This document shows, one piece after another, positions 15,790-50,553 of a DNA stretch of 56,035 nucleotides. Origin of the DNA: Anaerolineae bacterium (GTDB lineage: Bacteria; Chloroflexota; Anaerolineae; B4-G1; SLSP01); the NCBI GenBank assembly GCA_034437255.1, contig DAOTUH010000390.1, forward strand, positions 1-56,035. Direction: 5' to 3'. The number at the start of each line of letters is the position of its first letter. Within the stretch, counting starts at the first letter, position 1. A model generated the notes under the pieces. The model saw only the letters and a list, made by a program, of their open reading frames with translations. It had not been told where the DNA came from and searched no databases. A program made the translations under genes and the position numbers.

Positions 15790-16893
15790 CTATTCACCTC
15801 CCAGAGCAATTGGGAAATTTCGCTCAATGCGGGCCCCTATGAGCAGCTCCAACGGCACGTCAAGATCCCAGTACCGGGCTGCGACCAGGTTAACCACCAG
15901 CACATTATACCCAGGGACCCGGTGAGACAGCGATGCCGGCTCGGTGCCACGAAAGATTTCGACGGCCAGTTCTGCAGCTTCCTGACCTTGTGCGTAACCG
16001 GACACGGCGAGCCCCCCGACAGCCCCGCCTTCGTTTGTGTTGAGCTGCAAACCGAAAACCGGGATCGACGAATTCCCCAGCGTCCACCGCAACACCGTGC
16101 GTTCCGGTATGTGATCCCCATAATCATTCACCAAATTCTTGAAGTATCCTAGCAATAACACGTCAAAGGTGCTCGCTTTTTCCAAAACGAAGGTTTGCCA
16201 GGCCTCCCAGTCATTCGTCTGATGAAGCACTGTCTCTTCGACAAGAGCGTTCTCAGCATCCAGCAACGCTGCCCGCACCTCCTCACCTTCCGAGGTGCTG
16301 GCAATCGATTCATCGCTGAGAAACAAAACCTTTTCAGGAACCTGTCCTTTCATTGCGCTGGCGAGATGCACCGTTTGGAGTGGATATGTCCTCTCCAACA
16401 CCCCGGTTACGTTGGGGCGACTGAGTCCGTGCTCCCAGGCACTGCTATTCAGGCCACAGAAAATAAAAGGCAGGGTGGGGTCAGGATAGCCCCTGATCAC
16501 CCACCGCGCGGCCTCATCATCGGCAACGATCACCACGTCTGGATTGAACTCCTTGATTTCTTGAATTGCAGCCGTTGCCCGATCTTCGATTTCAACAGAA
16601 TCTCGTAACGTCTCGGCGCGCAGAGCAAATTCGGATAACACCAAATTCTGCGAAGCCTGCGCATAATCCAACTGGGCCAGTCTCTCCAGCACACCGGTCC
16701 GAATGCGGTTAGACCAGGGGTCTTCCTCTGAATAGGTACGAACAAAGAAGAGCCGGAGGGGCTGCTCCCCGACGAACTCGGCCGTTGGGATGGACGTCGA
16801 TGTGCGTGGCTCCTCCACTCGCTGGCCACACGACGCACCAGCCAAAGCGATCAAGAGCAGTATGACCCCACACCGGTAGCAGCGAGATATCAA
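15790..16893 (-). CDS. orphan solute-binding lipoprotein, PF04392 (ABC_sub_bind)-like
   Basis: Signal/lipobox 'LLLIALAGASCG'. It aligns by eye with the periplasmic domain of P4 ('LPFIFCGLNS' vs 'IPIVFCGINF'; 'IPVFGLQ..GGAVGGLAVSGYAQGQEAAELAVEIFRGTEP' vs 'VPVYGLW..HGIVGGKLTNARSQGEAAAEKAVEILEGTP'). The TTG start has GGAGG 6 nt upstream and overlaps the P3 stop (TTGA). Confidence 0.75.
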   Translation of the reverse strand: MISRCYRCGVILLLIALAGASCGQRVEEPRTSTSIPTAEFVGEQPLRLFFVRTYSEEDPWSNRIRTGVLERLAQLDYAQASQNLVLSEFALRAETLRDSVEIEDRATAAIQEIKEFNPDVVIVADDEAARWVIRGYPDPTLPFIFCGLNSSAWEHGLSRPNVTGVLERTYPLQTVHLASAMKGQVPEKVLFLSDESIASTSEGEEVRAALLDAENALVEETVLHQTNDWEAWQTFVLEKASTFDVLLLGYFKNLVNDYGDHIPERTVLRWTLGNSSIPVFGLQLNTNEGGAVGGLAVSGYAQGQEAAELAVEIFRGTEPASLSHRVPGYNVLVVNLVAARYWDLDVPLELLIGARIERNFPIALGGE

Positions 16894-18665
16894 GTTTTGC
16901 CTCCATCGCGGTCAGATTCTCGAACATCCTCGACTTCGGCCGGCACCAACTGCAAGCGAGCACGCTCCACCTGCAAGGCACGTCCTAACTCCTCGACGGC
17001 ACTGCGCAGGATCGCATCGACTTGTACAGATGCTCGAACCCGCCCCACGATTTCACTGCGAGCGCGCTCTTGAGTAGCCCGGAGTCGCGTCTCCTCAAGC
17101 AGTCGGGCGTTTTCCAGCGCCAGACCCAGTTGCTCGGTAACGTCCTCTGCCAACCGCCGGGCCTCCTTCGACCAGGGATGTGGCGACTCAAAGATGAGCA
17201 CGCCCAACGTCCTTCGCTGGATCCGAACCGGCACTCGCAGCAGATACATGCCATCCCTTTGAATCACTTGAACTTCCTCCAGGTGAGAAGGATCCTCCGA
17301 CAACGCAAACCCCTCCGGCACCCGATCTTCCAAGTGAACCCGATTGTAGGCGTAGGCAATCTCACGCTGACGTCGCATCAATGCCTGACGCCAACCGGTG
17401 ACAACCTCTTCCTCCTGATATTGCTGCAAGCGTTCCAAGGTCCTCCGGGTTTCGCCGAGCAAGCGGGTGTTCTCAATAAACACCGCCAAGCCATCAGTAA
17501 GGATTGAAAGGACTTGAACATCTTCTTCTGTGAATGCCTCCTCCAGCTTGCTCTGAATATCCAAGAGGCCGATCAAATCTCCTCGCGAAACCAACGGCAA
17601 GATCATCTCTGAAGAGGTCTCTGGCAGATTAGGGTTCGCGTACCAAGTCCTGGTCAGTTCAACCTGACCGATAACCTGAGGGCGTAAGGTAGCCGATGCC
17701 TGCCCCACCAGGCTATCACCTCCTACCCCCAGCTTATGCCTCTCCGCGATCATCTTTTTGCCGGCCTCGGAAGAAGCAGCGCGCAACACCATCCAGCCCC
17801 CCGTATCATCCAGGAGGAAAATGCCAACGTGGTAAAAACCAAACCGTTGCGCAATAAACGTGACCGCTCTGGTCAACAATTCATCTAGATCGAAAATGCC
17901 CGCTAACACGCGATTCAACTCGGCGATAGCCTGAAACTGATTCACACGTTCGCGCAGCTGTTGCGTTCGCACAGCCACGCGCTGCTCCAGGTCGCTGCGG
18001 GCGCGCTCAAGATTTTGCGTTGCATCTTGTAGGGACCCCAGCGCCTGACGCAAACTACGCATGTTCAGAAAGGTCACGCCACCACCAGCCGACAACAACA
18101 TAATTAACGTAAATACAACAAAGTTGACTTTGCTTGCTTCCCCCGCTGTAAACGGCGGAGTGTAAAGGGAGAACCCCATTAGCAGATGCAAGATGATGAA
18201 AAATGCTAGCACACCGCCACTTAAACGTAAGCTATAATCAGGCTTCTGCAAAATTCCGGAGACCGCAACGGGCCAGAAGAAGAGCACCCACGCGGACGAA
18301 TAGATACCGTCAAAAAGCGCAGAAGCCAAAGCTATGCCCAGATAGGTGCCCCACACAAAGATCTGAACGGTCGACTGGATTTTGCCCCGTTTCACGCGAT
18401 AGAAGCAGTAAGCGGAAAACGGAATGAAAGCCAGGGTAAGCATCGTTCCAAAGATATAATCTGGATGCGGCATGAGACCGACGAGGCCCACACTCAAGAA
18501 GACCGTGAGTAGCGCAATCACGATGTCCATCGTAATGAAGAGCAAGGTGTTGAAAACTCGGCCTAGCCGCTGTATCTCCTCATCAGGATGCTCAACGCTG
18601 ATCAGTCGCTCCCAAAGTTCACGAATCCTCGACGTCGGGCGCTGATGACTTTCGAATTGCGTCAT
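16890..18665 (-). CDS. P3, GAF-stub sensor paralog: class-I polytopic membrane module (about 6 TM) - coiled coil - GAF-A - half-GAF - GAF stub
   Basis: 'FGFYHVGIFLLDD..HKLGVGGDSLVG..LPETSSEMILPL..DIQS'. Tail 'LENARLLEETRLRATQERARSEIVGRVRASVQVDAILRSAVEELGRAL'. The ATG overlaps the P4 stop (ATGA), and GAGGAGG is 5 nt upstream. Confidence 0.85.
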   Translation of the reverse strand: MTQFESHQRPTSRIRELWERLISVEHPDEEIQRLGRVFNTLLFITMDIVIALLTVFLSVGLVGLMPHPDYIFGTMLTLAFIPFSAYCFYRVKRGKIQSTVQIFVWGTYLGIALASALFDGIYSSAWVLFFWPVAVSGILQKPDYSLRLSGGVLAFFIILHLLMGFSLYTPPFTAGEASKVNFVVFTLIMLLSAGGGVTFLNMRSLRQALGSLQDATQNLERARSDLEQRVAVRTQQLRERVNQFQAIAELNRVLAGIFDLDELLTRAVTFIAQRFGFYHVGIFLLDDTGGWMVLRAASSEAGKKMIAERHKLGVGGDSLVGQASATLRPQVIGQVELTRTWYANPNLPETSSEMILPLVSRGDLIGLLDIQSKLEEAFTEEDVQVLSILTDGLAVFIENTRLLGETRRTLERLQQYQEEEVVTGWRQALMRRQREIAYAYNRVHLEDRVPEGFALSEDPSHLEEVQVIQRDGMYLLRVPVRIQRRTLGVLIFESPHPWSKEARRLAEDVTEQLGLALENARLLEETRLRATQERARSEIVGRVRASVQVDAILRSAVEELGRALQVERARLQLVPAEVEDVRESDRDGGKT

Positions 18666-20956
18666 TTCGCCTCCTCTTGATCACCAACCAGGGCCAAGCG
18701 GGCTACAGCGCGTTCGGCGCCCAACGCCTGCCCCAAATCACGCAGCGCTTGTTCCAACACCGCCTCAATTTCTAACTGAGCCCGGAGACGATCGGTAATT
18801 TCACCGACTTGCTGCTCGTGTTGGGCAAGCGCGCGGGTTTCCTCGAAAAGACGCGCGTTCTCCAAGGCCAAGCTGGCTTGATCCACGACAGATTGCACCA
18901 GCTCGCGCTCCTCATCGCTCCAGCGCGAGCCGCCGTCCTGTCGTTCCAGCTCTAATGAAGCTAACACCTGTCCTCGCAAGGAGATATCCGCTCTCAGACA
19001 GCGAGCGTCCTTCTTGGAGGACAACGTTGTACTCTCATCTACCGGAATCGGCCGGACATCCACGCCCGTGTACTGGAAGGCGACCGGTCGTGTGGTCATC
19101 CGCTCTTCCCAAACCCTACGAGACTGTTCACCGTAAACGCGCTCCAACTCTTCCAGCGCCTGCTGACTTTCTTGATATAGACGCACGTTGTCGATAGCCA
19201 ACGCCAACTGGTCTGCCATGGTCTCCAATATGGTGATATCCTCTTCATCAAAGGCCGCCGGCTGAGTTGATTGAACGTCGAGGACGCCCACCAATTCTCC
19301 TCGGACGCGGAGAGGTAAGGTCATCTCCGAACGTGTCTCAGGGAGGTCTGGGTTATTAAGCCATATAGCGTCCTCGCCCACATCAAGAGCGATACGCGAC
19401 CGGCCCGTCTGCAAGACTGAGCCCACGATGCCTACCTCTCGAGTTAGGCGGTGACCGCGCTCCAGCATCCGCCGCCCTCCCTCGGACGAGGCCGCCCGCA
19501 AGACTGCGTACGCTCCGCTTTCATCGACCAAAAAAATGCCCGCGTGGTAATAGCCAAACTGCCGCGAGATGCGCTCCACCGTCGCGGTGAGCAGGATGTT
19601 GAGATCGCGGAAGCCGGCGGCATCGCGGACGACCTCGGCCGCCATCTCCAGTTGCCAGCCGCGTTTTTCCAAATCGGCGGTTCGCTGCGCAACGCGCTCC
19701 TCCAGCGTGGCCCGGGTTGCTTCCAGCGCCCGGTTCGTCTCTCGCAGATCGGTCTCCACCTCGCGCCGTTGCCGGAGATTGACCAGCTGGACAACCACGA
19801 TGGCCAACAGTCCCGTGATGACGCCGGCCACCGGCCAGATGATGCGTCTGTACTGCTCATAGAACGTCGGGGGCCTATTCGTGATTTCGCTATCTTCCGG
19901 TAAGCGATTGACGGAAATGCCAAATCGCTCCAACTGTTGGTAGTCAAATATGTAGCGATTAGGACTGTCTTTGAGAACGGCCACCTCACTCACCGGCGTT
20001 CCCTCCAAAATCTCCACCGCCTTCTCCGCTGCAGCTTCACCCTGGGAACGAGCGTTGGTCAACTTCCCGCCGACAATACCGTGTCCCATGTAGAAATCCC
20101 ATAAGCCGTAGACGGGCACGCGGGTGTTCTCATAAATGAGTTCGATGCTCTCCTCATAGGTGTAGAAGTTTCCAGCTCGATCACGATTCAGCAACACGAG
20201 CAGGATCAAGGTATGTTCCGACACATTCCCCAGCTCCCGCAACATCCCATCTAAGACCGGATTGGTGTAGTATCGAAATTCAACCCTATCCGCATATTGA
20301 GGCGTGATCTCACGTAGCAAACGCTGGTAGACCTGGCCCGTGGTCGTGGCATCGTTCACCACCACGATCTGACGGGTGTCAGGATGAACACGCAGCATCA
20401 GATCCAGCGTATCGGTTATGTCCACGTCCTCCACCACACCGGTGAAGGTATCCTCAACGCCTGCCAACATCTCATCCTCAAAAAAGTTGATACCACAGAA
20501 AACGATGGGAATTCCTGGGAAAAGTGTCTCGTGGTATTTCAGCACAAAGTCAAAGGCGTTATTGTCACTGATTAACACAAGATCTAATGGGGCATCCCGG
20601 TATTTTCGCCAATAGAGACTGTACAGACCCTGATAGTACTCCTCGTCCGGGGCGAAGCGTTTCGTATCCATGTACTCAACATAGACTTCTGGATCCAGAT
20701 CGCTTTCAGCAAACACCTCCTGCATACCTTGCATGACCCCATCAGTCCAGCTGAGACCGCGATGATAAGAATGCAACACCAATACGTGAGGCACTGGCTC
20801 TTGGGCGACTGCATTCGGTGGCAGCACGACAGTGGCAAGCGAGGCCAGTATGATCAAAACTGCCAACCATCCCGTGCGCCAGTCTTTGGCACCCAGGCCA
20901 CACGCCTTCACGGTCTTGGCGATCATCGCTACTAGACGTTCAAGCAGAACCCACAT
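18662..20956 (-). CDS. P4, GAF-stub sensor paralog: signal/TM - fused PF04392-like solute-binding domain - TM - coiled coil - GAF-A - half-GAF - GAF stub
   Basis: The periplasmic part 'HVLVLHSYHRGLSWTDGV..IPIVFCGINF..' (nt about 19860-20795) is homologous to the free SBP at 15790-16893. GAF-A 'FGYYHAGIFLVD..LPETRSEMTLPL'. Tail 'LENARLFEETRALAQHEQQVGEITDRLRAQLEIEAVLEQALRDLGQAL'. Confidence 0.85.
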   Translation of the reverse strand: MWVLLERLVAMIAKTVKACGLGAKDWRTGWLAVLIILASLATVVLPPNAVAQEPVPHVLVLHSYHRGLSWTDGVMQGMQEVFAESDLDPEVYVEYMDTKRFAPDEEYYQGLYSLYWRKYRDAPLDLVLISDNNAFDFVLKYHETLFPGIPIVFCGINFFEDEMLAGVEDTFTGVVEDVDITDTLDLMLRVHPDTRQIVVVNDATTTGQVYQRLLREITPQYADRVEFRYYTNPVLDGMLRELGNVSEHTLILLVLLNRDRAGNFYTYEESIELIYENTRVPVYGLWDFYMGHGIVGGKLTNARSQGEAAAEKAVEILEGTPVSEVAVLKDSPNRYIFDYQQLERFGISVNRLPEDSEITNRPPTFYEQYRRIIWPVAGVITGLLAIVVVQLVNLRQRREVETDLRETNRALEATRATLEERVAQRTADLEKRGWQLEMAAEVVRDAAGFRDLNILLTATVERISRQFGYYHAGIFLVDESGAYAVLRAASSEGGRRMLERGHRLTREVGIVGSVLQTGRSRIALDVGEDAIWLNNPDLPETRSEMTLPLRVRGELVGVLDVQSTQPAAFDEEDITILETMADQLALAIDNVRLYQESQQALEELERVYGEQSRRVWEERMTTRPVAFQYTGVDVRPIPVDESTTLSSKKDARCLRADISLRGQVLASLELERQDGGSRWSDEERELVQSVVDQASLALENARLFEETRALAQHEQQVGEITDRLRAQLEIEAVLEQALRDLGQALGAERAVARLALVGDQEEAK

Positions 20957-20958
20957 TG

Positions 20959-22644: not shown

Positions 22645-22660
22645 TGTCTGCCTCTTCCTT

Positions 22661-22696
22661 ACTATGATCTAACCTATGACCTGACCTATGACCTGT
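22661..22696. repeat. 3 x 12-bp tandem repeat (ACTATGATCTAA / CCTATGACCTGA / CCTATGACCTGT) spanning the P6 stop and the P6-P5 spacer
   Basis: Read directly from the sequence. On the minus strand the unit is (A/T)CAGGTCATAGG, just 5' of the P5 RBS AAGGAAGAGG. Confidence 0.7.
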
Positions 22697-25274: not shown

Positions 25275-25341
25275 AAGCCATTATTTATTAACAGACCCTA
25301 AGGTTGCACGCCACGGCATGCAACCTATTCGCTCAAGCAGT

Positions 25342-26726: not shown

Positions 26727-29162
26727 TCAACCACCTTCATTTGCATGGTCCTCTTTGGCTCGCAAACTAACGACTACCCTGCCTAACTCTAACGACTGGC
26801 GTATCTCACTGGCTGCCGCTCTTAGTATCGTTTCCACATTCAATGTCTCACGCATGTGGGCTGCGATCTCGCCGCTGAGCCGTTCACGCGCCGCGCGGCG
26901 TTGGGTATCTTCGTAGAGTCGGGCGCTCTCCAACGCGACGTTCAACTGCTCCGTCACCGTCTCCATCAATGCAATCTCTTCCTCAGACCAAGCTTCATCT
27001 CCGTCTGATTTGCACAGCTTGACCGCCCCCACAACGTTCCCACGAATCTTAACCGGAAGCGCCAACGTCGTCCCGTCCTGCTGCACCCTTTGCCCTTCCC
27101 GGCTCGCTCGCTCCATCACCTCCGGCGAACGTCCCTCGACGGGTCGCGTGCCCTGCACGTTGCTGGCGAACCCCAGATGTGCCCGCCTGCGCACTGCTTC
27201 CAGCCAGGCTTGTCGACTGAGATCCCCATACGCACGTCGCTCCGCTTCCAGGCTCTCCTGCGCCTGCTGGAAGAGCCGGGCGTTGCTGATCGCCATCCCC
27301 ACCTGATCGGCCAGGATTTGCATGACGGCCGCGTCCTCGTTCGTAAACGCGCCCGGCTCCTTGCTTTGCACGTCCAGGGCACCAATGATCTCGCCCCGTG
27401 CGCGCAGTGGCAACGTCATCGCCGAACGAGTCTCCGGTAGATCTGGATTGTCGAAGAAGACGGCGTCCTCGCCCACATCCAGCGCGATGCGGGGCTCGCC
27501 TCGCGCCGTAACGTAGCCCACGGTACCTTTTTCGCCGACCTTCAGCCGGTGCCCCCGCTCCAGCATCCGCTGCCCGCCCACGCTAGAGGCTGCCTGCAAC
27601 ACGGCCCACTCACCGGTCTTGTCGATCAAAAAGAGGCCAGAATGATAAAAACCAAACCGCACACTGATCAGCCGCACCACGCGAGCGAGCAACTCGTCGA
27701 GATCCAGCTCCGAGGCCGCATCGTGCGAGACCTCCGCCGTGGCCTCCAGATACTGGGCACGTTCCTCCAGATCCCGGGTCCGGGCCTCCACGCGCTCCTC
27801 CAGGGAACCGATCAGACCTCGCAGGCGTGCCGCCATATCGTTGAAAGCGGCGGCTAACTGGCCCAGCTCATCCTCCGAGCGCACCGGGACTTGATAATCC
27901 AAATCGCCGGCTGCAATCCGCTCCACACCGTCTATCAACCCATCCAAGGGCCGCCCGGCCACGTTCTGCACACCAAAGTAGACAATCGCCGCCGTCAGCA
28001 AGGTTCCCAGTATCGCCGTCAGTCCGATGCGTCGCACCAACCGTCGAGTCGCCTCCTCCACCTCTGAGACGGGGCTGAAAACAACGGCTCGTAGATCCGA
28101 AGACGTCGAGGGATCGGACCACGCGATCGGCTCCCGGGCGAAGTAGAAATCTCTCTGATCCAACGTCAGGATCGTTTCTTCTTCCTCCAACGACGCGGCT
28201 ACCGTTGCCCCATCGTCATCCTCCAGGCTGGTGATCAACAGCTGTCCGCCTTGAGCCAACCCCACGTTCAACCCCAGTTGATCCGCCATCAAACTCATCA
28301 TCGCGACATCAAATTCCTGCTCCACCAGCGCCACCCCCACCGCCACGGTCTCGGCCTCCCAGGTCTCGGGGTCGGGCACCGGAACTTTTACCGGATACCA
28401 CGTCTGCAGCACCGGAACACCCTCCCTGACGATCACGTCCGAGCGCGGTGGCGCGTCCCGGTCCCAGGTATTGGAGAAGTACTCATACTCTATGGCCTCC
28501 TCCACGGAGGTGAAGCCCTGTTCAACGTAGAACTGGGCCGGCGGCGCAGAGTAGGCTGCGCTGATATCGAAGTAACCGGGCGCCGGGGCGCTAAACGTCT
28601 CCACGTCAATGCTGTACATCACGCGTGCCCCCAGATCGACCTTCTCGGTGAAACGGCTGAGCACGATGCGCTCCTCGTCCAGGCGCAGCGCCAGCACCGG
28701 CCTCGCGTCAACCACCACCTCAAAGGGCGAGATCAGATAGAAGCTGATCGAGGTCAGCTCGTTGAGCCGTTGCGCCGACCGCAACAGCTGCACGAGATTG
28801 AGCTGGGCCTGGAAAGCGTAAATCTGACTGGAGGGTTCGATAGGCTCACCGGCCTGCATAAATTCCTCTGCAAAAGAAGAAGCCGGATCTGCATAATAAG
28901 GCCCGAAATTGGTCAGGAGCTGGAGCTCCTCAACCATAGGCTCACTCTCTTCCATGCTCCTGGTGGTCTCCGCCGCGTTTTGTTCCATCTCCGTGATGCG
29001 CCGGGCGAAGATTTGCGACATGCGAGCCAGATCTTCTTGCTTCACCGCTTCCAGGTCGTTGGAACTGGAGGTACCCACCACAAAGGAGACGCCCGCGGCG
29101 AACAGCAAGAATATCACGCCTACGACGACCGTTAATTTTTGACCAATGCCCCACTTAGCCAT
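26727..29162 (-). CDS. P7, GAF-stub sensor paralog: TM - about 340-aa periplasmic domain of unclear family - TM - HAMP - GAF-A - half-GAF - GAF stub
   Basis: HAMP 'GDLDYQVPVRSEDELGQLAAAFNDM'. 'FGFYHSGLFLIDK..AASSVGG..LPETRSAMTLPL'. Tail 'LESARLYEDTQRRAARERLSGEIAAHMRETLNVETILRAAASEIRQSL'. Confidence 0.85.
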   Translation of the reverse strand: MAKWGIGQKLTVVVGVIFLLFAAGVSFVVGTSSSNDLEAVKQEDLARMSQIFARRITEMEQNAAETTRSMEESEPMVEELQLLTNFGPYYADPASSFAEEFMQAGEPIEPSSQIYAFQAQLNLVQLLRSAQRLNELTSISFYLISPFEVVVDARPVLALRLDEERIVLSRFTEKVDLGARVMYSIDVETFSAPAPGYFDISAAYSAPPAQFYVEQGFTSVEEAIEYEYFSNTWDRDAPPRSDVIVREGVPVLQTWYPVKVPVPDPETWEAETVAVGVALVEQEFDVAMMSLMADQLGLNVGLAQGGQLLITSLEDDDGATVAASLEEEETILTLDQRDFYFAREPIAWSDPSTSSDLRAVVFSPVSEVEEATRRLVRRIGLTAILGTLLTAAIVYFGVQNVAGRPLDGLIDGVERIAAGDLDYQVPVRSEDELGQLAAAFNDMAARLRGLIGSLEERVEARTRDLEERAQYLEATAEVSHDAASELDLDELLARVVRLISVRFGFYHSGLFLIDKTGEWAVLQAASSVGGQRMLERGHRLKVGEKGTVGYVTARGEPRIALDVGEDAVFFDNPDLPETRSAMTLPLRARGEIIGALDVQSKEPGAFTNEDAAVMQILADQVGMAISNARLFQQAQESLEAERRAYGDLSRQAWLEAVRRRAHLGFASNVQGTRPVEGRSPEVMERASREGQRVQQDGTTLALPVKIRGNVVGAVKLCKSDGDEAWSEEEIALMETVTEQLNVALESARLYEDTQRRAARERLSGEIAAHMRETLNVETILRAAASEIRQSLELGRVVVSLRAKEDHANEGG

Positions 29163-29234
29163 AACCAGCCTCTTTACATCTCCCTGCGCTCAGACCATGC
29201 ATGAAATCTCCAAACGTTCAGGTAGAGCATTTGT

Positions 29235-30959
29235 TCACTCTCCCGCCCACTGCTTGACCAGCTCATCGTAGGCAATCGTCCTCGGCCGTTCAGCAGTCCG
29301 CGTCGGCTTAGGTGCTCCGGGCGCAGACAACCATGTCTCAGGATCAAGCAAAGGATTGAGGTCTGGAGAGTACGTCGCCATCCGCATGTTGCCCATCGCC
29401 TCGTCCATCTGTCGGGCGATGGCGTCCATGGCCTGTTGCGGCGTGATCTCGCCCTCAATCGCCCGCGCGATATTGGGCCACCAAAACCCAGCCAACTTGG
29501 GATAGTTGGGCACATTGGGCCCCGTGTCTGTCCATTTGCTCTCCTCGCTGGAACGATAGAACTCGATCAACCCACCCCACTGCGCCTTGCGCGCTGTGAG
29601 ATAATCCGAGAAGATCGTGGAGCGCCGCACCGGTGTGCCGCCTTCCAGGAACTTCTCCAGCGACACCGTCTTAGAGACACAGAATTGGGCCCACAGCCAC
29701 GCCATGCCCCGCCGCTGCCCCTTGACGTTCCGGGGAATCGTCCAGCTTCCCGCGTCCTGATACCCAACCTTCATGCCCGCGTCCCAGTAACGTCCATGGG
29801 GCGTCGGGGCCACGCGCCAGAGCGGATTACCGTCCTCGTCAACCACCGGGTTGCCCGGCTCGTGAAAGGACTCGTCGGAAAGCCAGGTGATATACTGGAA
29901 GATGCGCTGTGCGATATCACCGCGCGAGCCCTTCGGACCGGCGTCCACCCAGCGCCAATCCTTGGCCTCGGGCGGCGCGTACTTGTCCAACCACTCGATG
30001 TACTTGGACAGCGCGTAGACGGCAGCCGGACCGTTGGCCGCGCCCCCGCGCTCGACGGACGCGCCCACGGGAATTCTGTCTTCCACGCGGATGCCCCACT
30101 CATCGACGGGCAAGCCGTTGGGCAATCCTCGGTCCCCCACCCCGGCGATGGAGAGCCAGGCGTCGGTGAAGCGCCATCCCAGGGACGGCGATTTCTTGCC
30201 GTAGTCCAGGTGCCCGTAGACCATCTGCCCATTGATCTCGCGACCGGTGAAGAATTCCGCGATGTCCTCGTAGGCAGCCCAGTTGAGGGGCACGCCCAGC
30301 TCGTAGCCGTATTCCTCTTCAAAATCGGCCTTGATCTCCGGGTCGGTGAACCAATCGTAGCGGAACCAGTAGAGATTGGCGAACTGCTGGTCGGGCAGCT
30401 GCAGTTGGTTGCCATCGTAATCCTGTCCAAATTCGAGATTCAGGAAGTCGTCCAGATCCAGATCGGGATTTGTGAACCGCTCCCCCTCGCCCGCCATGTA
30501 CTCGCTCAGATTGACCACGCCCTGACTGCGCAGATGGGTGCCCACCAGATCGGCATCGTTGACGTATATGTCGTACAGGATGCGCCCCGTGCTCTGCTGC
30601 TCCACCATGCGCTCGACGACGGTGCCCTCGCCCACGATCTCGTGTTCCACGTGAATGCCCGTGATCTCCTCGAAGGCCTGCGCCAGCACCTCGCTCTCCC
30701 AGTAGTGCGTGTTGATGTCCTCCGCCACGGACGTGATGCTGCGCCCCCGGAACGGCGCGGCGGTCTCGGCGAACCAACGCAGCTCGGCCACACGCTCGCG
30801 CCGTGAGAGTGCCGACACGTCGAACTCATCGGCCCACTTTTGCACAGCCGCTTCTATATCCTCCGGCAACTCACCGGATTGGGCCCTCGCTGGCGCCGTG
30901 GGCACCAACAGCGAGAGGCATACGAAAAGGATCAGGCCTTTCGTCAGTGACGGCATCAT
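29235..30959 (-). CDS. orphan extracellular solute-binding protein (family 1, sugar/oligosaccharide-type, 574 aa)
   Basis: Signal peptide 'LILFVCLSLLVPTAPARA'. A Trp/Tyr-rich SBP_bac_1-like sequence ('ANLYWFRYDWFTDPEIKADFEEEYGYELGVPLNWAAYEDIAEFF'). The ATG overlaps the P8 stop (ATGA). No permease or ATPase gene is nearby. Confidence 0.65.
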   Translation of the reverse strand: MMPSLTKGLILFVCLSLLVPTAPARAQSGELPEDIEAAVQKWADEFDVSALSRRERVAELRWFAETAAPFRGRSITSVAEDINTHYWESEVLAQAFEEITGIHVEHEIVGEGTVVERMVEQQSTGRILYDIYVNDADLVGTHLRSQGVVNLSEYMAGEGERFTNPDLDLDDFLNLEFGQDYDGNQLQLPDQQFANLYWFRYDWFTDPEIKADFEEEYGYELGVPLNWAAYEDIAEFFTGREINGQMVYGHLDYGKKSPSLGWRFTDAWLSIAGVGDRGLPNGLPVDEWGIRVEDRIPVGASVERGGAANGPAAVYALSKYIEWLDKYAPPEAKDWRWVDAGPKGSRGDIAQRIFQYITWLSDESFHEPGNPVVDEDGNPLWRVAPTPHGRYWDAGMKVGYQDAGSWTIPRNVKGQRRGMAWLWAQFCVSKTVSLEKFLEGGTPVRRSTIFSDYLTARKAQWGGLIEFYRSSEESKWTDTGPNVPNYPKLAGFWWPNIARAIEGEITPQQAMDAIARQMDEAMGNMRMATYSPDLNPLLDPETWLSAPGAPKPTRTAERPRTIAYDELVKQWAGE

Positions 30960-33900
30960 ACGTCGCCCTCCTCCAAGGCTGAGAGCATAATCCGCACTTC
31001 GGCCTCCTCCAGATTCAATGCCGCGCGCATCTCACGGGCAGCAACCTGGAGCACCGCTTCCACGTCCAGCGACTCGCGTATTCGGGAGGTGATCTCGCCG
31101 GTCAACCGCTCACGAGCGGCGCGGCGCTGGGTGTCCTCGTACAGCCGGGCACTTTCCAGGGTCCGGCCCAACTCCTCGCTCAACGCGTCGAGCAGCTTCT
31201 TCTCCTCGATTGTCCACTTCTGGTCCGTACCATCCTTGCGGAAACGGAGTGTGCCGATGGCTTGATCCCTCACTTTAATTGGCACGTCCAGCACCGCCCC
31301 ATCGCCCTCGGTCTGCACACGCTCGTTCTTCTCGGCGGCCTTCATGATTTCAGGCTGCGGCGTCTCCTCAATGGGAACCACCTCCTGGTTCACGTACCGG
31401 TATCCCCACTCGGTCCGACCTCGCAGCAACTTCTGCCACGCCTCGCCGCTCAGCTGACCGTAGGCCCGCCGCTCCGCTGCCAGCGCTTCCTGGGCTTCAG
31501 CGAAGAGGCGTGCGTTGTCCAACGCCACTGCCAGTTGATCGGCCATGGTCTGCAAGACAGCAATGGTGGCTTCGTCGAAGGCGCCGGGACGCGTGCTCTG
31601 CACCGTCAACGCTCCGACGACCTGGCCACGGGAACGCAACGGCAGGGCTGCCTCGGAGCGGGTCTCCGGCAGCTCGGGCGTTGCCAGGCGCACCGCGTCT
31701 TCCTTCGCCACTTGGGCAATACGTGCCTCTCCGTGGGCGACGCTCCAGCCAATCATCGACGTGCCGCCGACTTCCAGGCGGTGACCGCGACCCAACATCG
31801 CCCGGCCGGCCTCACCGGTCCCGGCCTCCAATACAGCCCATTTCCCGGCTTCGCCCACCAGGAACAACCCAACGTAATAGAGGTCGAACCGCTTGCGGAT
31901 CAGCTCCACGGATTGTTGAATTAACTCTTCTACATCCAGGATCGAGGTCGCAGCCCGGCCCACGTCAGCAGCGGCTTTCAAGCCGCGCGTGCGCTCGGCC
32001 ACCATCTCTTCCAACTCCGTGGCCTGGCTGGAAAGCAACCGTTCCCGCTCTTCATAGTAGTCAATCCTGCTTCTCAGCTCTTCCGGCGATACCTGGAGAT
32101 CAGCAAGAATCCTGCCGTACATCCCAGAAAGCTCGCTGGCTTCTTCAGGGGTCATGAGCACGTCCCGCTCCATGGTCCGGTGAGCCGCTGCCGCTCCAAT
32201 GGACCCGGCTAGCACGCGCTCCACCTCTCCGTAGAATTCAGCCAGCTCGGCCACGGAGATCTGTGCCTTTTCCTCGATTCCCACGGCATCCAGGCTAAAC
32301 TCAATGATATTTGCCACTTGGACATCGTTGAAGTACTGGCTGAGCAACCCCTCCAACACGTCGCATTTGCTAGCTATATCAATGTGAGCTTCACCATAGG
32401 CAAGGAGCCGCAAGGTAGGACCGGCGACCAGCGCATCAACGAAGGCGTCGGCTAGTTCCCGCTCCTCTTCGCTCTGCTCAAAGTAGAGGGAGCCCAACAC
32501 GTATAGTCCGACGTTAAACGTCATCGTCCAGAAGAGCGTATGCGTCAACGGTGATAATCCCACCAGGCCAAAGAGCTGCTCCGGTCGGAGAAACTGGATC
32601 CCCAGAGGCCCCTGTTCCAATAGCGACATCGATAACCAGCCGCTCTTGACCAGGGACGGTAACAATAAAGTATAAGTCCAGGTCAGGAAACCGGCGCTCA
32701 GACCCAAGATGGATCCGGTCTTGTTCCCTCGGCGCCAGAAGATGCCGCCCAAAATAGCCGGAGCAAATTGAAGCGCGGCGGCGAAGGAAATCAGCCCCAT
32801 ATTGACCAGGGTATAGGATTCGCCAATCAGCCGTTCGATGAGATAGCCCAAGAACAAAACAAAGGCGATGACGACCCAGCGGACCTGCAGCAGATTACGC
32901 CGCAGAAAGTCCAGCCCTTTCAACCATTCCAGGGACGGCAGCACAAGATGGTTGACGATCATCGTAGCCGTCGTCATCCCACTGACCATCACCATGCCCG
33001 TGGCTGCCGAGAAACCACCGATGAACGCCATCAGGGCCAACCAGGGCCGGTTTTGGCTCAGCGGCAGCTCCAGCACGAAGGTATCGGCTTCCTGTATTGG
33101 CTGGCCCTGTAGCAGTCCACCCACCGCGATGGGGATGACGAAGATGTTGATCAAAAGCAGGTACAGCGGCAGGAGCCACATGGCGGTACGGATGTGATTC
33201 TCATCGGAGTTCTCCACCACTGCCACGTGAAACTGGCGTGGCAAAAACACAATCGCAGACATAGCTAGAACCAGATACGTCATCCAGGTAAGATACGCTG
33301 AAATATCCTCTCCCGCTCTGCCCATAAGTCCCTGGAAAGGACTTTCCGATAGGCGTTGGAAGATGTCCCCAAATCCATCGTACATGATGTATGTCACAAA
33401 GACGCCCACGGCCAAAAAGGCCACCAGCTTCACGATGCCTTGCACCGCCAGAGCTACGATCATGCCTGGCTGCCGTTCTGTGGGATCCAGGCGCCGTGCG
33501 CCAAAGGCAATCGTGAAGGCCGTCATGGTAGCGACCACGGCAAGGCCGATGGGGCCTTCGCCCCAGGCGCCACCCGCGCCCCCGGCAGCGACCATCGTGG
33601 TGAACGTGGAGGTCACCGACTTCAACTGGAGCGCAATATACGGCGTGATCCCCACCAGGGCGATGATCGTCGCGATGGCGGCTAGGGCCGGTGATTTCTC
33701 ATAGCGGGCCGAGATAAAGTCCGCGATGCTGGTGATGCGATGGGCGGCCTTGATTCGCACCAGCTTGCGCAGCACGAGCCACCACAGGGCGATCATCATC
33801 GTCGGTCCCAGGTAAATCGTCAAGAAGAGCGCACCGGAGCTGGCAGCGTTGCCCACACTGCCATAGTAGGTCCAGGAGGTGCAATAGACGGCCAGCGCCA

Positions 33901-34030
33901 GTACGTACACCAGCGGGCTCCCGGCCAATCGCCGCGCGTGGAGTGAGCCGCGCTCCACCCACTGCGCGATCAGAAACAGAAAGCCTATGTACAGCACAAG
34001 CGCTGCAATAATCGTAGCCACACTAAGCAT
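30956..34030 (-). CDS. P8, GAF-stub sensor paralog: SLC5/sodium:solute-symporter-like 12-13 TM domain - helical linker - coiled coil - GAF-A - half-GAF - GAF stub
   Basis: The first 510 aa or so are polytopic with an SSF-like pattern ('ITSIADFISARYEKSPALAAIATIIALVGITPYIALQLKSV', 'FLPRQFHV', 'GGFSAATGMV'). Then 'FDLYYVGLFLVGE..AGTGEAG..LPETRSEAALPL'. Tail 'LESARLYEDTQRRAARERLTGEITSRIRESLDVEAVLQVAAREMRAAL'. Confidence 0.85.
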   Translation of the reverse strand: MLSVATIIAALVLYIGFLFLIAQWVERGSLHARRLAGSPLVYVLALAVYCTSWTYYGSVGNAASSGALFLTIYLGPTMMIALWWLVLRKLVRIKAAHRITSIADFISARYEKSPALAAIATIIALVGITPYIALQLKSVTSTFTTMVAAGGAGGAWGEGPIGLAVVATMTAFTIAFGARRLDPTERQPGMIVALAVQGIVKLVAFLAVGVFVTYIMYDGFGDIFQRLSESPFQGLMGRAGEDISAYLTWMTYLVLAMSAIVFLPRQFHVAVVENSDENHIRTAMWLLPLYLLLINIFVIPIAVGGLLQGQPIQEADTFVLELPLSQNRPWLALMAFIGGFSAATGMVMVSGMTTATMIVNHLVLPSLEWLKGLDFLRRNLLQVRWVVIAFVLFLGYLIERLIGESYTLVNMGLISFAAALQFAPAILGGIFWRRGNKTGSILGLSAGFLTWTYTLLLPSLVKSGWLSMSLLEQGPLGIQFLRPEQLFGLVGLSPLTHTLFWTMTFNVGLYVLGSLYFEQSEEERELADAFVDALVAGPTLRLLAYGEAHIDIASKCDVLEGLLSQYFNDVQVANIIEFSLDAVGIEEKAQISVAELAEFYGEVERVLAGSIGAAAAHRTMERDVLMTPEEASELSGMYGRILADLQVSPEELRSRIDYYEERERLLSSQATELEEMVAERTRGLKAAADVGRAATSILDVEELIQQSVELIRKRFDLYYVGLFLVGEAGKWAVLEAGTGEAGRAMLGRGHRLEVGGTSMIGWSVAHGEARIAQVAKEDAVRLATPELPETRSEAALPLRSRGQVVGALTVQSTRPGAFDEATIAVLQTMADQLAVALDNARLFAEAQEALAAERRAYGQLSGEAWQKLLRGRTEWGYRYVNQEVVPIEETPQPEIMKAAEKNERVQTEGDGAVLDVPIKVRDQAIGTLRFRKDGTDQKWTIEEKKLLDALSEELGRTLESARLYEDTQRRAARERLTGEITSRIRESLDVEAVLQVAAREMRAALNLEEAEVRIMLSALEEGDV

Positions 34031-34289
34031 CGCTCACCTCTCCGCCTTTCCCACCATCCTTCCCTTCCTCCATTTCCGATGTATCAGCAGGAACCGACGT
34101 GGAACTTCGGGCCACAAGAAACAACAAGATAATGATCCCCGCCCAGGGAAGGTACAAGGATCGCATCACGGGATCGGGACGCGCTACGGCGAACATGACT
34201 AATAACGGTCGCGTGAACAGGATCAAACAGAGGCCGAAGAGCAAGATGTGAAACTCCGATCGTCCTAACAACGTCCTTAGCCTTTTCAT
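34023..34289 (-). CDS. small (88 aa) two-TM membrane protein, translationally coupled to P8
   Basis: Two hydrophobic spans ('FHILLFGLCLILFTRPLLVMFAV' and 'LYLPWAGIIILLFLVA') and an acidic tail. It starts 7 nt after the P9 stop, and its stop overlaps the P8 start by 8 nt. The position is analogous to small DUF485/YjcH-type partners of SSF transporters, but no sequence similarity is claimed. Confidence 0.5.
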   Translation of the reverse strand: MKRLRTLLGRSEFHILLFGLCLILFTRPLLVMFAVARPDPVMRSLYLPWAGIIILLFLVARSSTSVPADTSEMEEGKDGGKGGEVSDA

Positions 34290-34296
34290 CTTCAGA

Positions 34297-36981
34297 TCAC
34301 TCCTCTGCTTCCATCCGCACTTCTATCTCAGCAATGCCCAATCGCTCTCCCATCTCACGAAGGGCCGTACGGAGTATGACATCCATGTCCAACTTCTCGC
34401 GCATACGAGATGTGATTTCACCTAACATCTGCTCACGAGCGGCGCGGCGCTGGGTGTCCTCGTAGAGACGCGCGCTCTCCAGTGCGCGCCCCAACTCTTC
34501 TGTCAGCGCCTCCAACAGCACTTGCTCTTCGGCGATCCAAGCCTGTCCTGGTTCCGCTTTGCTGAAATTCAGCACGCCAACAACGCGATCACGCACTCGG
34601 AGAGGCACAGCCAACGTCGCCATATCTGACGCATCCTCTACGAAGCCCTGTACACTTTGCTCTCTGTTGACGGCGCGATGCATCTCAGGCGTCCAATTAT
34701 CGTCTTGGGCCGGCACAGTGGTTGTACCCTGATAGTCATAGCCCCAATTGGAACGAGCTTGCAGGATCTTGGCCCATGCTTGACGGCTCAACTCTCCATA
34801 GGCGCGGCGCTCTGCCTCTAGCGAGGCCTGCGCTTCCGTGAACAATCTTGCGTTATCCAATGCCACAGCAATTTGATCTGCCATCGTCTGCAACAACGTG
34901 ATAGTATCACGATCAAAGGCATTGGGCACAGTGCTCTGAATCGTGAGTGCACCGCGCACCTGACCACGAGAACGCAAAGGGAGTGCTCCCTCAGAACGCG
35001 TCTCAGGCAAATGAGGATTATCAAAGCGCACAGCCTCATCGCCGACATCCAGTGCAATTCGCGCCTCTGCATATTTGATGCATTGGCCGATCATGGAGTC
35101 CCCGCCCACCCGTAGTCTATGTTCTTCAGCCAGCATTTTACGTCCTGCTTCACCGGTTCCTGCTCGCAAGACAGCCCAATTCCCCTCGACCAGGAAAAGT
35201 CCTACGTAATAGAGGCCAAAGCGCTCACGAATCAAAACCACCGCTTCACGGATCAAACGATCGCGCTCCAAGATCGAGGCAATGGTGTGGCTTACCTCGC
35301 CCGCAGTCTCTAGATACGCCGATCGTTCTTCTAGCTCACGGGTCCGATCAGCGACACGTTCCTCAAGACTGCCAATGAATTCCCGCAGCTGGCGAGTCAT
35401 GCTGTTAAAAGCACCCGCCAAGGCGCCAATCTCGTCTTCCCGTTCTGTCTCTACAGTGATGAGTTCCTGATCCCCAGATGCGATCTGTTGAGCCGTATCA
35501 GCCAGTCTCGCCAGTGGAACTGTGATCGTGTTGGTAAGAATGATAGAGACAATAACTACCCCTAACACCGCTCCAACCGCAATCCCCGCATCTAGCAGCA
35601 ACAACCGGCTGACGCCGCGAAAGGCCTCGCTGGCATCCTGTTCTGCCACCAATGCGACCCGGAAATCCGGTAGCCAATGATAAACTCCTACCACAGCAAC
35701 GTCCCGGTAATTTTTGTACTGTCCGCTACCCTTCGTTTTCTGTCCAATCGCCATGGTGGTTGCTTCAGAACGAATGTAAGCTATACTCTCTGCCTCGAAC
35801 CTTGACGTCGTAAGCAGGGCGTAGTTAGATCCTACTAGATAAGTCTCACCCGTCTCACCCAGCCCGGCGCGCTCAAGCATAATGCTACTGAGAGCATCCA
35901 TATCCGCCCGGCCTGCCAGAACTGCGACTGGTTCATTCTCTTGGTTGGTCAAGGGACGGGCTGCCAACACCAAGGTCTCCTCAAGTGATGGTGAATAAGA
36001 AGGGGGATGCACATAAGGGCCTTGTAGTCCTTCTTGAAAGAACGTGTCACGGGCGTAAACTTTGCCCTGTTGTGTCGGGTCCGTGGATATAAAGACTTGT
36101 CCGTCGAGATCCATCACAAACATCTCTTCGAAGAGTCCCATCTGTTCGATAGCCCATTGAAGATGTTCCTGGATACTTTCGTACGTCGATTGGCTCGCTG
36201 ACGCTGAACCTATAATCTCTTCAAGTTGATCTGGAAGTTGAGAACTGGTAGCTACAACATCAAGATTCACCACCAGATCATCCAACCAGGCTTGAATCTC
36301 CGCTTGTTTGAGTGTGGCAACGGATTCAAGCTGGTTCTCTACCTGTTGTCGGATCTGATCACGGGCCACTAAGAACGCGCTGCCTCCAATAACCAAGGCC
36401 AATAACAGTACCAAGGGCACGTACGTAATCAGCAAGCGGGAGCGAATGGTACGCAGACGACCGCGAGCAATCACATACTGCCAGACAATAAACAAAGTTA
36501 AGAGGCCTAGGACGGAGAGATAGGCAATAAGCTGCCCTCCGGTATCCGCCAAAACACGACGAGGCAACGGTGCTAACCAGTTAACTAACACGACAAAAAC
36601 TAGATACCCCACCGCGGCACCTAACCCGACAACCCAGCGATGCGGTAGCAACAGAGCCCCTACAAACAGCAACAGCACAGCCACCAATGCAGTTAATATC
36701 GGATCTTGAACCCAGAGCAGTTCGTCGACACCGATTCCCAAAAATGTAGCCAGCAATATCCAATAGGCAGCTCGGTCGAGAGTCTCTTGCCGGAGAGCTT
36801 GCCAGGCCAATATCAAACAGCCAAGAGCCAGCAAAATAAAGCCGGCATCGGCCAAGATATACCAGGCCTGCGTCCTATAATAATCTCTCACATCGGCAGC
36901 AAGCCCGACAATAGCAACCACTAAGCCGATCAGAATGATCCGCCTCATGACCAGAGCGCGCTGCTTGAGCTGTTCAGACAT
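34297..36981 (-). CDS. P9, GAF-stub sensor paralog: about 7 TM - Cache-like periplasmic domain - TM - HAMP - GAF-A - half-GAF - GAF stub
   Basis: Cache-like segment 'FVMDLDGQVFISTDP..YVHPPSYSPSLEETLVLAARPL..ETYLVGSNYALLT..VVGVYHWLPDFRVALVAEQDASEAF'. HAMP 'GDQELITVETEREDEIGALAGAFNSM'. 'FGLYYVGLFLVEG..AGTGEAG..LPETRSEGALPL'. Tail 'LESARLYEDTQRRAAREQMLGEITSRMREKLDMDVILRTALREMGERL'. Confidence 0.85.
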   Translation of the reverse strand: MSEQLKQRALVMRRIILIGLVVAIVGLAADVRDYYRTQAWYILADAGFILLALGCLILAWQALRQETLDRAAYWILLATFLGIGVDELLWVQDPILTALVAVLLLFVGALLLPHRWVVGLGAAVGYLVFVVLVNWLAPLPRRVLADTGGQLIAYLSVLGLLTLFIVWQYVIARGRLRTIRSRLLITYVPLVLLLALVIGGSAFLVARDQIRQQVENQLESVATLKQAEIQAWLDDLVVNLDVVATSSQLPDQLEEIIGSASASQSTYESIQEHLQWAIEQMGLFEEMFVMDLDGQVFISTDPTQQGKVYARDTFFQEGLQGPYVHPPSYSPSLEETLVLAARPLTNQENEPVAVLAGRADMDALSSIMLERAGLGETGETYLVGSNYALLTTSRFEAESIAYIRSEATTMAIGQKTKGSGQYKNYRDVAVVGVYHWLPDFRVALVAEQDASEAFRGVSRLLLLDAGIAVGAVLGVVIVSIILTNTITVPLARLADTAQQIASGDQELITVETEREDEIGALAGAFNSMTRQLREFIGSLEERVADRTRELEERSAYLETAGEVSHTIASILERDRLIREAVVLIRERFGLYYVGLFLVEGNWAVLRAGTGEAGRKMLAEEHRLRVGGDSMIGQCIKYAEARIALDVGDEAVRFDNPHLPETRSEGALPLRSRGQVRGALTIQSTVPNAFDRDTITLLQTMADQIAVALDNARLFTEAQASLEAERRAYGELSRQAWAKILQARSNWGYDYQGTTTVPAQDDNWTPEMHRAVNREQSVQGFVEDASDMATLAVPLRVRDRVVGVLNFSKAEPGQAWIAEEQVLLEALTEELGRALESARLYEDTQRRAAREQMLGEITSRMREKLDMDVILRTALREMGERLGIAEIEVRMEAEE

Positions 36982-37015
36982 ATTTATCTCCGCTTGACAA
37001 TGGCTCTAGTAGAGA

Positions 37016-38005
37016 TTATGGTTGTGAACCTTCCACGAACTCATTCGTATAGACAGCCGTCATATCCACACCCTCTTCGATCAATCCTCTATCAAAAAGA
37101 ATGTCGTGCATTTCTTGCCAAACCTCCTCACGCATCTGACCGATGGCGCCTTCTCCGGTATCGATGAGGGGAATGCTGATTTCGACAGACTCATACTCAA
37201 TCTCGCGTTCCGTCTCAGGCGCAAATGCCATGACCGCGTCTGCGGCTAGTCCGGGGTTTTCGATAGCTTCTTGCCATCCTTTGAGGGTTGCTCGCACAAA
37301 ACGCTGCACCACATCAGGATTTTCCTCGATAAACGTGTCCGTAGTGAAGAGCACGTCCCCATAGAAGGGTACACCGTACTCACCCGGCCAAATGGCCTGA
37401 ACTGAAATACCGTTACGTTCGGCGTAAGGAATGTCGTTGATAGCGTAACCTGGGCAGACCTCAGCGGCCTCCCAGCACTCCAACACATCCCAACTCGGCA
37501 TATCGATCTCGTTGATTTGCTCGCGATCTATATCCAACGCGCCCACAATGGCCTCATAAAGATAGGTTCCTTGCCCTGGGGAAAGCGCTACGGTATGACC
37601 GGGAAAATCATGGGGACTCTGAATACCCGTCTCTTGCGGTGTTATGTACACCAGTGGGACGATCTTATAAATCACGGCGACGGCTTTCACAGGCTCTCCC
37701 TCACCGCGATGGATAATTAACTCTTCCGGCGCACCAAGCGCAAAGTCGTTTTCGCCGTTCAACACATATTCTGTAGTCACCTGCCGATCCATATCAAGGG
37801 GCTCGATGGTGACATCCAGATTCTCTTCGGCATAGTAGCCCTCTTGATCCGCCACGTAGATGCCTGCGAACTGGCCTTGATGGGCCCACTTAAGGCGAAT
37901 GGAAATCTGGTCCGGCTCCGGTGGAGCCGCCGTACATGCTCCTAAGAGAATTATACCTATGACGAGCACCAGCTGAGTCACGATCTGTCTGCGTCTACTT
38001 AACAT
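37016..38005 (-). CDS. orphan NMT1/THI5-like (SsuA/TauA-type) solute-binding lipoprotein
   Basis: Lipobox 'ILLGAC'. 'ISIRLKWAHQGQFAGIYVADQEGYYAEENLDVTIEP' is the typical NMT1/SsuA N-terminal pattern. The ATG at 38005 has AGGAGG 5 nt upstream (the ORF track uses GTG 38029). Confidence 0.7.
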   Translation of the reverse strand: MLSRRRQIVTQLVLVIGIILLGACTAAPPEPDQISIRLKWAHQGQFAGIYVADQEGYYAEENLDVTIEPLDMDRQVTTEYVLNGENDFALGAPEELIIHRGEGEPVKAVAVIYKIVPLVYITPQETGIQSPHDFPGHTVALSPGQGTYLYEAIVGALDIDREQINEIDMPSWDVLECWEAAEVCPGYAINDIPYAERNGISVQAIWPGEYGVPFYGDVLFTTDTFIEENPDVVQRFVRATLKGWQEAIENPGLAADAVMAFAPETEREIEYESVEISIPLIDTGEGAIGQMREEVWQEMHDILFDRGLIEEGVDMTAVYTNEFVEGSQP

Positions 38006-50552: not shown

Positions 50553-50553
50553 C

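Follow-up and report, generated by a model that had tools for sequence, protein, structure and literature searches.

Four candidate pairs of solute-binding proteins and kinase-less HAMP-GAF-GAF receptors in a single gene array of an Anaerolineae bacterium

Activation of membrane receptors by solute-binding proteins (SBPs) is thought to be widespread, and so far few of these systems have been recognized (PMC8050422). The receptors reviewed there use dCache-like, four-helix-bundle, or HBM-like domains and are stimulated by SBPs of thirteen families, and sbp genes linked to signalling genes rather than to transporter genes were described as well (PMC8050422). In particular, LuxP-LuxQ, XylFII-LytS, and ChvE-VirA are cases in which a Peripla_BP_4 SBP stimulates a histidine kinase in the membrane (Table 1 in PMC8050422). 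Moreover, CuaD, which acts with a two-component system in Ruminiclostridium cellulolyticum, is a family-1 SBP in signalling (PMC10384115), and in the GlnH-GlnX-PknG system of Corynebacterium and Mycobacterium, a soluble kinase from the same operon is under the control of an SBP together with a transmembrane protein that is not catalytic (PMC9769921). Here, we analyzed a stretch of 56,035 nt from an Anaerolineae bacterium (contig DAOTUH010000390.1, in the following termed the window), in which four SBP genes are each located directly upstream of a paralogous receptor gene with a HAMP domain.

Based on our analysis, the four SBPs probably catch ligands for the sensor encoded just downstream instead of feeding a transporter, and the signal would then be passed into receptors that carry a GAF-GAF module and no kinase core. 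Such SBP-dependent sensing, as put forward by the original prediction for this DNA, is supported by comparative evidence for three of the pairs, namely family-1 SBP/P7, RbsB-like SBP/P6, and NMT1 SBP/P9, whose SBPs and sensor domains appear to be inherited together across different output types. The fourth pair, PF04392 SBP/P2, is a candidate proposed by analogy and in view of a PF04392 domain that is fused into another paralog, P4. Exported SBPs, receptors with HAMP domains, no adjoining transporter genes, and a co-inheritance that does not depend on the output together are, as judged from gene content and gene order, the genomic signature of SBP-stimulated receptors.

The four genes for solute-binding proteins and their downstream receptors

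The SBP genes belong to an array on the minus strand, in which all genes are co-directional and which fills nearly the whole window (5889-55778). In the order of transcription, it comprises a response regulator, a membrane kinase, 15 GAF-GAF paralogs, a methyltransferase, and the soluble hybrid kinase P1. The four SBP genes and the receptors proposed as their partners, with a mobile element between two of them, are the following (aa, amino acids; TM, transmembrane helix):

37016-38029, minus strand: NMT1/SsuA-like lipoprotein SBP (PF09084, E=4.6e-44; lipobox LGAC); proposed partner P9
34297-36981, minus strand: P9, with 6 TM, dCache_1, TM, HAMP, GAF-GAF, and tail (Pfam and hydropathy); extracytoplasmic part of ~250 aa; kinase-less
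29235-30959, minus strand: family-1 (MalE-like) SBP, 574 aa, with a type-I signal peptide; proposed partner P7
26727-29162, minus strand: P7, with TM, periplasmic domain of ~345 aa (P7N), TM, HAMP, GAF-GAF, and tail
25342-26517, minus strand: RbsB-like (Peripla_BP_4) lipoprotein SBP (PF13407, E=2.2e-36; lipobox VTGC); proposed partner P6
25116-25257: insertion of ~140 bp resembling a miniature inverted-repeat transposable element (MITE), whose interior between the terminal inverted repeats GGCGCCTTTGCGTGAGG is AT-rich, in the gap between the RbsB-like SBP and P6
22686-24926, minus strand: P6, with TM, helical periplasmic domain of ~260 aa (P6N, 4HB/HBM-like), TM, HAMP, GAF-GAF, and tail
15790-16893, minus strand: PF04392 (ABC_sub_bind) SBP (PF04392, E=2.2e-11), with a hydrophobic N-terminus and a non-canonical lipobox; candidate partner P2
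12724-15696, minus strand: P2, with TM, periplasmic domain of ~140 aa, TM, HAMP, and four GAF domains (Pfam and hydropathy)

All four SBP genes are intact, and their products have export signals in the form of a signal peptide, a lipobox, or a hydrophobic N-terminus. For the NMT1 SBP, the start at 38005 given in the original prediction is an internal one and equally plausible as that at 38029. The assignment to four different families could be confirmed, for three of the proteins by Pfam and for the 574-aa protein by the Pfam labels of its homologues together with a fold match. This protein revealed no Pfam match at E<=0.01 and only weak matches, to sugar-binding proteins, in a search of PDB sequences. 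Its homologues are 65-87% identical and occur across phyla, type-I signal peptides were also detected in its orthologues, some homologues carry PF01547/PF13416, and many were named 'glycerol transport system substrate-binding protein' by the Joint Genome Institute (JGI). An AlphaFold2 model based on 61 homologues (predicted local distance difference test, pLDDT, of 89) matched MalE-like sugar SBPs with target TM-scores of ~0.8, the best PDB folds being 5iai, 6dtq (MalE3), and 1eu8 (TMBP) at <=20% identity. Thus, because of the labels of the homologues and the fold match to family-1 sugar SBPs, the 574-aa protein was assigned to SBP family 1.

In each of the receptors P9, P7, P6, and P2, an extracytoplasmic domain leads into a TM helix and HAMP, and no HisKA or HATPase_c domain was detected by Pfam in any of the four. 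Altogether, HAMP was found in five of the 15 paralogs, the fifth being encoded at 43182-45044, so that both counts agree with those given before. An SBP gene precedes four of the five paralogs that combine HAMP with a real extracytoplasmic domain, and the gaps between SBP and downstream gene are exactly those originally reported: 34 bp for NMT1-P9, 72 bp for family-1-P7, 415 bp for RbsB-like-P6, and 93 bp for PF04392-P2. The widest of them contains the MITE-like insertion, whose nature was verified via its terminal inverted repeats and a second GGCGCCTTTGCGTGAGG-ended copy with the same termini at 4056-4205. As the gap at the orthologous site of locus L024 measures 54 bp, it is the insertion that widens the gap in the window to 415 bp.

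The arithmetic of the hypergeometric chance that all four genes downstream of an SBP belong to the HAMP class was right as well (5/1365 = 0.0037), and with the two GAF-bearing kinases counted in, it amounts to 15/2380 = 0.006. This in-window test is post hoc, and the synteny across genomes described below is the stronger evidence. An explanation of the adjacency by chance, or as a side effect of genes being shuffled within a large array of paralogs, could point to this post hoc character and to the fact that HAMP is present in about half of the paralogs from the sampled loci. Given that the in-window probability is 0.004-0.006, that a HAMP sensor follows all of the about seven independent types of SBP in other arrays, and that orthologous pairs were kept while the surrounding genes were shuffled, we regard it as very improbable.

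Conservation of the pairs in related genomes

Related loci were gathered via homologues of two of the SBPs and by searching collections of genomes and metagenomes with aligned N-terminal domains of P7, and were annotated with phmmer queries from the window and with Pfam. They include loci from Anaerolineales, Anaerolineae, Caldilineaceae, and other Chloroflexota metagenome-assembled genomes (MAGs) as well as two near-identical contigs from JGI metagenome 3300012009. Among the related MAGs are GCA_964514285.1, GCA_964474655.1, and GCA_964593985.1, and SBPs of 99% identity are present on a 244-kb ENA contig. A family-1 SBP gene directly upstream of a P7N-type sensor was found in 19 of 19 loci with P7N, that is, in the window, L002, L003, L006, L008, L012, L013, L015-L022, and L028-L031, which belong to Chloroflexota and Thermodesulfobacteriota. 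The gaps between both genes range from 4 to 142 bp, with the exception of L015, where a restriction-modification gene is inserted between them. The output of these sensors is mostly GAF-GAF, while a HisKA-HATPase core is present in L015, an Anaerolineaceae MAG, and in L022, a Thermodesulfobacteriota genome (P7N profile E=3e-111), and L021 harbors a hybrid kinase.

P7N itself is well conserved and displays the invariant motifs TNLGPYYADP and QTWYPVK, but has no Pfam model, and a profile search of PDB sequences revealed no relative. An exhaustive search of 1.84 billion representatives resulted in matches in 39 clusters only. Among 33 full-length members, 32 carry HAMP, 21 HATPase_c, 10 GAF, two SpoIIE, and one the MCP signalling domain. 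Given these counts, P7N is a rare yet genuine extracytoplasmic sensor domain, whose kinase-less form is in the minority. A word-index search with the P7 periplasmic domain gave zero matches, which we take as an artefact since orthologues were found by other searches. Divergences of SBP and P7N correlate with r=0.92, a value that is descriptive only and has no independent control. The idea that P7N is a divergent dCache domain was not supported when it was compared with the P9 dCache alignment by hhalign (probability 0.3%).

In a Leptospiraceae genome, the same SBP clade (at least 66% identical) was also identified, here immediately in front of the gene for a dCache_2-HAMP-SpoIIE phosphatase sensor, and in Pseudoalteromonas denitrificans one gene, a 256-aa SBP_bac_3-like open reading frame, separates the SBP from a kinase downstream. 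No ABC (ATP-binding cassette) transporter genes were found at these two loci (L023, 8001-11914, and L009, 8001-12066, respectively). The annotation 'glycerol transport' of the 574-aa SBP clade may be misleading.

For the RbsB-like SBP, co-occurrence with P6N was detected in three independent contexts. Apart from the window, an orthologue of 77% identity is separated by 54 bp from a downstream P6 orthologue (P6N E=9e-132) in the L024/L025 array, where the upstream neighbor of the SBP differs from that in the window. Outside any array, in L026, an SBP of 69% identity is followed after 8 bp by a P6N-HAMP-STAS protein (P6N E=3e-75). When the RbsB-like SBP was used for a metagenome scan, no relatives were obtained. 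P6N matched 4HB_MCP_1 with E=2.4e-5 and 24.4 bits (cutoff 27) and HBM with E=0.001 and 19 bits (cutoff 29.8), and no relative among PDB sequences was found.

The NMT1 SBP precedes a P9-type dCache sensor in seven of ten loci (window, L003, L008, L012, L013, L016, and L018), and in L008 and L018 this sensor is a complete histidine kinase with adjoining downstream response regulators. Since no NMT1 gene is present in front of it in L017, L019, and L029, the association is frequent, but not obligate.

With respect to the PF04392 SBP, the protein of the window is only 20-23% identical to other PF04392 SBPs. Members of this family precede dCache-HAMP-GAF sensors in L006 and L020, and L006 harbors four tandem PF04392 SBP paralogs in a row (14297-18674) upstream of a single dCache_1-HAMP-GAF sensor, which suggests that several SBPs possibly feed one receptor. 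Further SBP types in front of HAMP sensors were identified in other arrays, namely Peripla_BP_6 in L002 and Peripla_BP_4 in L016. In all sampled arrays, what comes after each SBP gene or SBP cluster is a HAMP sensor that has an extracytoplasmic domain, and in no case a HAMP-less multi-TM paralog. Loss of the adjacency of SBP and sensor in related genomes had been named beforehand as an observation that would speak against SBP-dependent sensing; for family-1/P7, RbsB-like/P6, and NMT1/P9 the adjacency is retained.

Several observations weigh against the proposal that the SBPs serve the downstream receptors. Besides the three loci in which NMT1 is absent, no P2 orthologue was found in any fetched locus, which leaves the PF04392-P2 pair without comparative support. 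The periplasmic domain of P7 reached a pLDDT of <50 in the AlphaFold2 model of the full-length receptor. Scans for promoters and terminators remained at chance level, so that the short gaps are what speaks for co-transcription. Two further observations, overlaps of SBP genes with the gene in front and a relative of one SBP in a transporter operon, each lead to another explanation.

The genes of the PF04392 and the family-1 SBP each overlap the upstream gene by 4 bp (16890-16893 with P3 and 30956-30959 with P8, respectively), which suggests translational coupling and could indicate that each SBP partners the paralog encoded upstream rather than downstream. In almost all related loci, however, the upstream gene varies and encodes an SSS-GAF protein, a dCache sensor, a 4HB-HAMP protein, a PAS/GAF giant, or an unrelated product, whereas the downstream sensor domain is constant, and P3, a multi-TM protein, does not possess a sizeable extracytoplasmic loop. 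Even the near-identical metagenome contig L001 differs upstream: compared to 30956-36981 of the window, P8 is gone and a different gene precedes the family-1 SBP. Its gene at 7302-10004 (900 aa) consists of the first ~850 residues of P9 and the last ~50 residues of P8, so that the loss of P8 is due either to a deletion, in which the conserved C-terminal tails of P9 and P8 recombined, or to an assembly collapse. Altogether, we consider a partnership with the upstream paralog very unlikely.

The relative in question, 64% identical to the RbsB-like SBP, is encoded within a classical ABC operon (L027). This would fit an explanation by which the SBPs serve ordinary transport together with a permease and an ATPase encoded elsewhere in the genome, are located in the array only because the array regulates them or due to operon history, and have no or just a secondary role in signalling; all four families are in fact best known from ABC importers. 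However, the family-1 SBP accompanies one and the same sensor domain in 19 of 19 loci from two phyla and with several outputs, never ABC genes, and the RbsB-like SBP likewise accompanies the P6N domain. For a regulator that merely stands beside its target operon, one would also expect genes for a permease at this site, yet no gene for a permease or ATPase adjoins any sensor-linked SBP in the related loci examined. We therefore think that a pure transport function is rather unlikely, and the relative in L027 suggests that the signalling SBP of the window was recruited from transport SBPs. A dual role in transport and signalling, as was reported for ChvE or GltB (PMC8050422), would be compatible with SBP-dependent sensing by the downstream receptors.

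Kinase-less receptors and the surrounding array

The 15 kinase-less paralogs share a common C-terminal GAF-GAF module, which follows a HAMP/coil segment, while their N-terminal inputs differ widely and include MASE11 and other 5-6-TM blocks, LacI-type, SLC5/SSS-like, and fused PF04392 domains, four-helix bundles, and dCache_1. Their C-termini align at 30-60% identity and comprise GAF1 (motif LPETRSE..LPL..RG..IG.LDVQS), then a second domain that is GAF-like and smaller, and a tail of ~50 residues, which is conserved in all 15 paralogs (…ARLYEDTQRRAAREQLIGE..R.RE.LD.E.VL…; e.g., 26727-26880 and 34297-34450). The tail resembles the start of another GAF domain. In an AlphaFold2 model of full-length P7 calculated with the paralog alignment, HAMP and GAF1 were predicted with confidence, GAF2 moderately, and the tail poorly.

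Orthologues of the paralog receptors in other genomes do possess a kinase core. P9 aligns end to end at 35% identity with the dCache-HAMP-GAF-GAF-HisKA-HATPase kinase of L008 up to the start of DHp, and its tail starts exactly at the position of the DHp/H-box in this orthologous kinase. From this we infer that the paralogs are kinase-type receptors whose catalytic core was replaced. The earlier description of these sensors as output-less needs the nuance that a conserved tail takes the place of the kinase core. The tail may be a docking element.

Further genes of the array, which are discussed with regard to the input and output of the receptors, are the following:

55218-55778: single-domain response regulator at the head of the array, before the membrane kinase
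52470-54785, minus strand: membrane HAMP-GAF-HisKA-HATPase kinase (head kinase; Pfam), candidate signal receiver
46803-50630, minus strand: LacI-type binding domain (Peripla_BP_3/1), cytoplasmic, without TM helix, fused to GAF-PAS-GAF; same paralog family
30956-34030, minus strand: P8, SLC5/SSS transporter-like domain with at least 10 TM helices, fused to GAF-GAF
18662-20956, minus strand: P4, PF04392-type binding domain (E=1.5e-6) between two TM helices (28-46 and 376-394), fused to GAF-GAF
11773-12561, minus strand: SAM-dependent methyltransferase (PF04672) between P2 and P1
5889-11291, minus strand: P1, soluble hybrid kinase of 1800 aa with seven GAF domains, HisKA, HATPase_c, and two REC domains (Pfam), candidate receiver of paralog signals

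In P4, the fusion of an SBP to the sensor was verified, as the PF04392 domain is located between the two TM helices; its identity with the free PF04392 SBP amounts to ~21%. As far as domain architecture can tell, this fusion shows that the PF04392 fold acts as a sensor input in the paralog family. P8, in turn, with its SSS-GAF organization, recalls CbrA-type transporter-sensors. The GAF units of P1 are close paralogs of the GAF-GAF module of the array (E~1e-45, phmmer), and giant proteins with multiple GAF domains, including at least some kinases, are encoded in every array examined (P1 in the window; L003, L006, L008, L016, and L020). Another, different methyltransferase was observed inside the related array L024 at 2296-2868.

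Based on these data, a mechanism can be proposed in which the SBP would first bind its ligand outside the cell. Guessed from family membership, this could be a polyol or sugar in the case of the family-1 SBP and a monosaccharide in the case of the RbsB-like SBP. Once loaded, the SBP would dock on the extracytoplasmic part of the receptor from the downstream gene, and the signal would run through TM2 and HAMP into the GAF-GAF module. In the last step, the kinase-less GAF-GAF modules might modulate P1 and/or the head kinase in trans via GAF-GAF contacts; by analogy, such a relay to the co-encoded GAF-rich kinases is our best guess.

A broader proposal combines two parts, namely that the family-1 SBP clade of 535-600 aa is a dedicated signalling SBP with P7N as its usual partner and that the whole array is a many-input integration hub. 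Taken jointly, both are put forward here only tentatively, as a possibility that we hold to be doubtful at present. In such a hub, the kinase-less receptors, about 15 in number and in four cases fed by SBPs, may converge by GAF-GAF docking on the seven-GAF hybrid kinase.

At the other end of the window, three features were identified on the opposite strand:

16-507, plus strand: Fur/Zur-family regulator
529-1431, plus strand: ZnuA, beside the Fur-family gene
1651-2001, plus strand: remnant of a ZnuB-like ABC-3 permease, last ~115 residues (E=1.7e-24), with stop codons upstream

A gene for ZnuC is missing from this region (16-2001), which represents a decayed zinc-uptake operon unrelated to the four SBPs. 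Because of the ZnuB-like fragment, the original claim that neither an ABC permease nor an ATPase is encoded anywhere is not strictly true; an intact one was not detected by Pfam in the 56-kb window. ZnuA can be seen as a fifth SBP without a working transporter in its vicinity.

Comparison with known systems

In the literature, no paper was found on the pair of family-1 SBP and P7N, and a search covering MASE11, GlpV/K17321, PF04392, and kinase-less GAF receptors resulted in no description of such a system. NMT1 and PF04392 are absent from the text of the review on SBP-stimulated receptors (PMC8050422). Thus, SBP-dependent sensing is an established kind of signalling, while its fourfold use by kinase-less HAMP-GAF-GAF receptors in one operon is new. 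New as well are NMT1 and PF04392 proteins as candidate signalling SBPs, and a strictly syntenic module that consists of a probably mis-annotated family-1 SBP clade and the undescribed sensor domain P7N.

The locus supplies four candidate pairs of SBP and sensor in one operon, and the synteny of family-1 SBP and P7N provides ready material for predicting the interface from paired alignments and for fixing the label 'glycerol transport'. Furthermore, one type of sensor domain can be joined to a kinase in some of the genomes and to a kinase-less GAF-GAF module in others, forming a natural series that makes signalling by receptors without an output domain directly testable. If it is true, the hub would represent a modular wiring of many senses into one phosphorelay.

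Compared to LuxP-LuxQ, XylFII-LytS, and ChvE-VirA, the window shares an exported class-I sugar-type SBP whose gene stands beside, usually upstream of, that of a two-TM sensor. As in these sensors, the extracytoplasmic domain is dCache-like or a four-helix bundle, and LuxP and XylFII are likewise encoded without adjoining transporter genes. In contrast to these systems, the receptors of the window display HAMP-GAF-GAF without a HisKA/HATPase core, four pairs are present in one operon, and P6N and P7N are not the domains of LuxQ, LytS, or VirA. For the RbsB-like SBP and P6, TorT-TorS is the best architectural analogue, as a periplasmic binding protein of class I works there with a long sensor domain that is helical and HBM-like, with stacked four-helix bundles. 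However, P6N stays below the Pfam cutoffs for HBM and 4HB_MCP_1, and TorS is a hybrid kinase.

The family-1 SBP resembles the MalE-like proteins of GltB-GtrS (P. aeruginosa) and CuaD, which are linked to a membrane sensor kinase instead of or besides a transporter, but no solved SBP shares more than 20% identity with the 574-aa clade, which is also ~170 residues longer, and the partner domain of this clade, P7N, has no counterpart in Pfam. In BvgS/EvgS-type sensors, periplasmic binding (Venus-flytrap) domains are fused into the sensor. Similarly, P4 has an SBP-fold PF04392 domain built into the receptor between two TM helices, although this domain belongs to another SBP family, and P4 has no kinase core and no detected HAMP.

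Finally, the closest logical analogue of a path from an SBP via a kinase-less receptor to P1 is GlnH-GlnX-PknG, which likewise comprises a lipoprotein SBP, an output-less transducer, and a soluble kinase. While GlnX is almost devoid of a cytoplasmic domain and PknG is a Ser/Thr kinase, the transducers of the window carry HAMP-GAF-GAF, and their candidate receiver is a GAF-rich histidine kinase.

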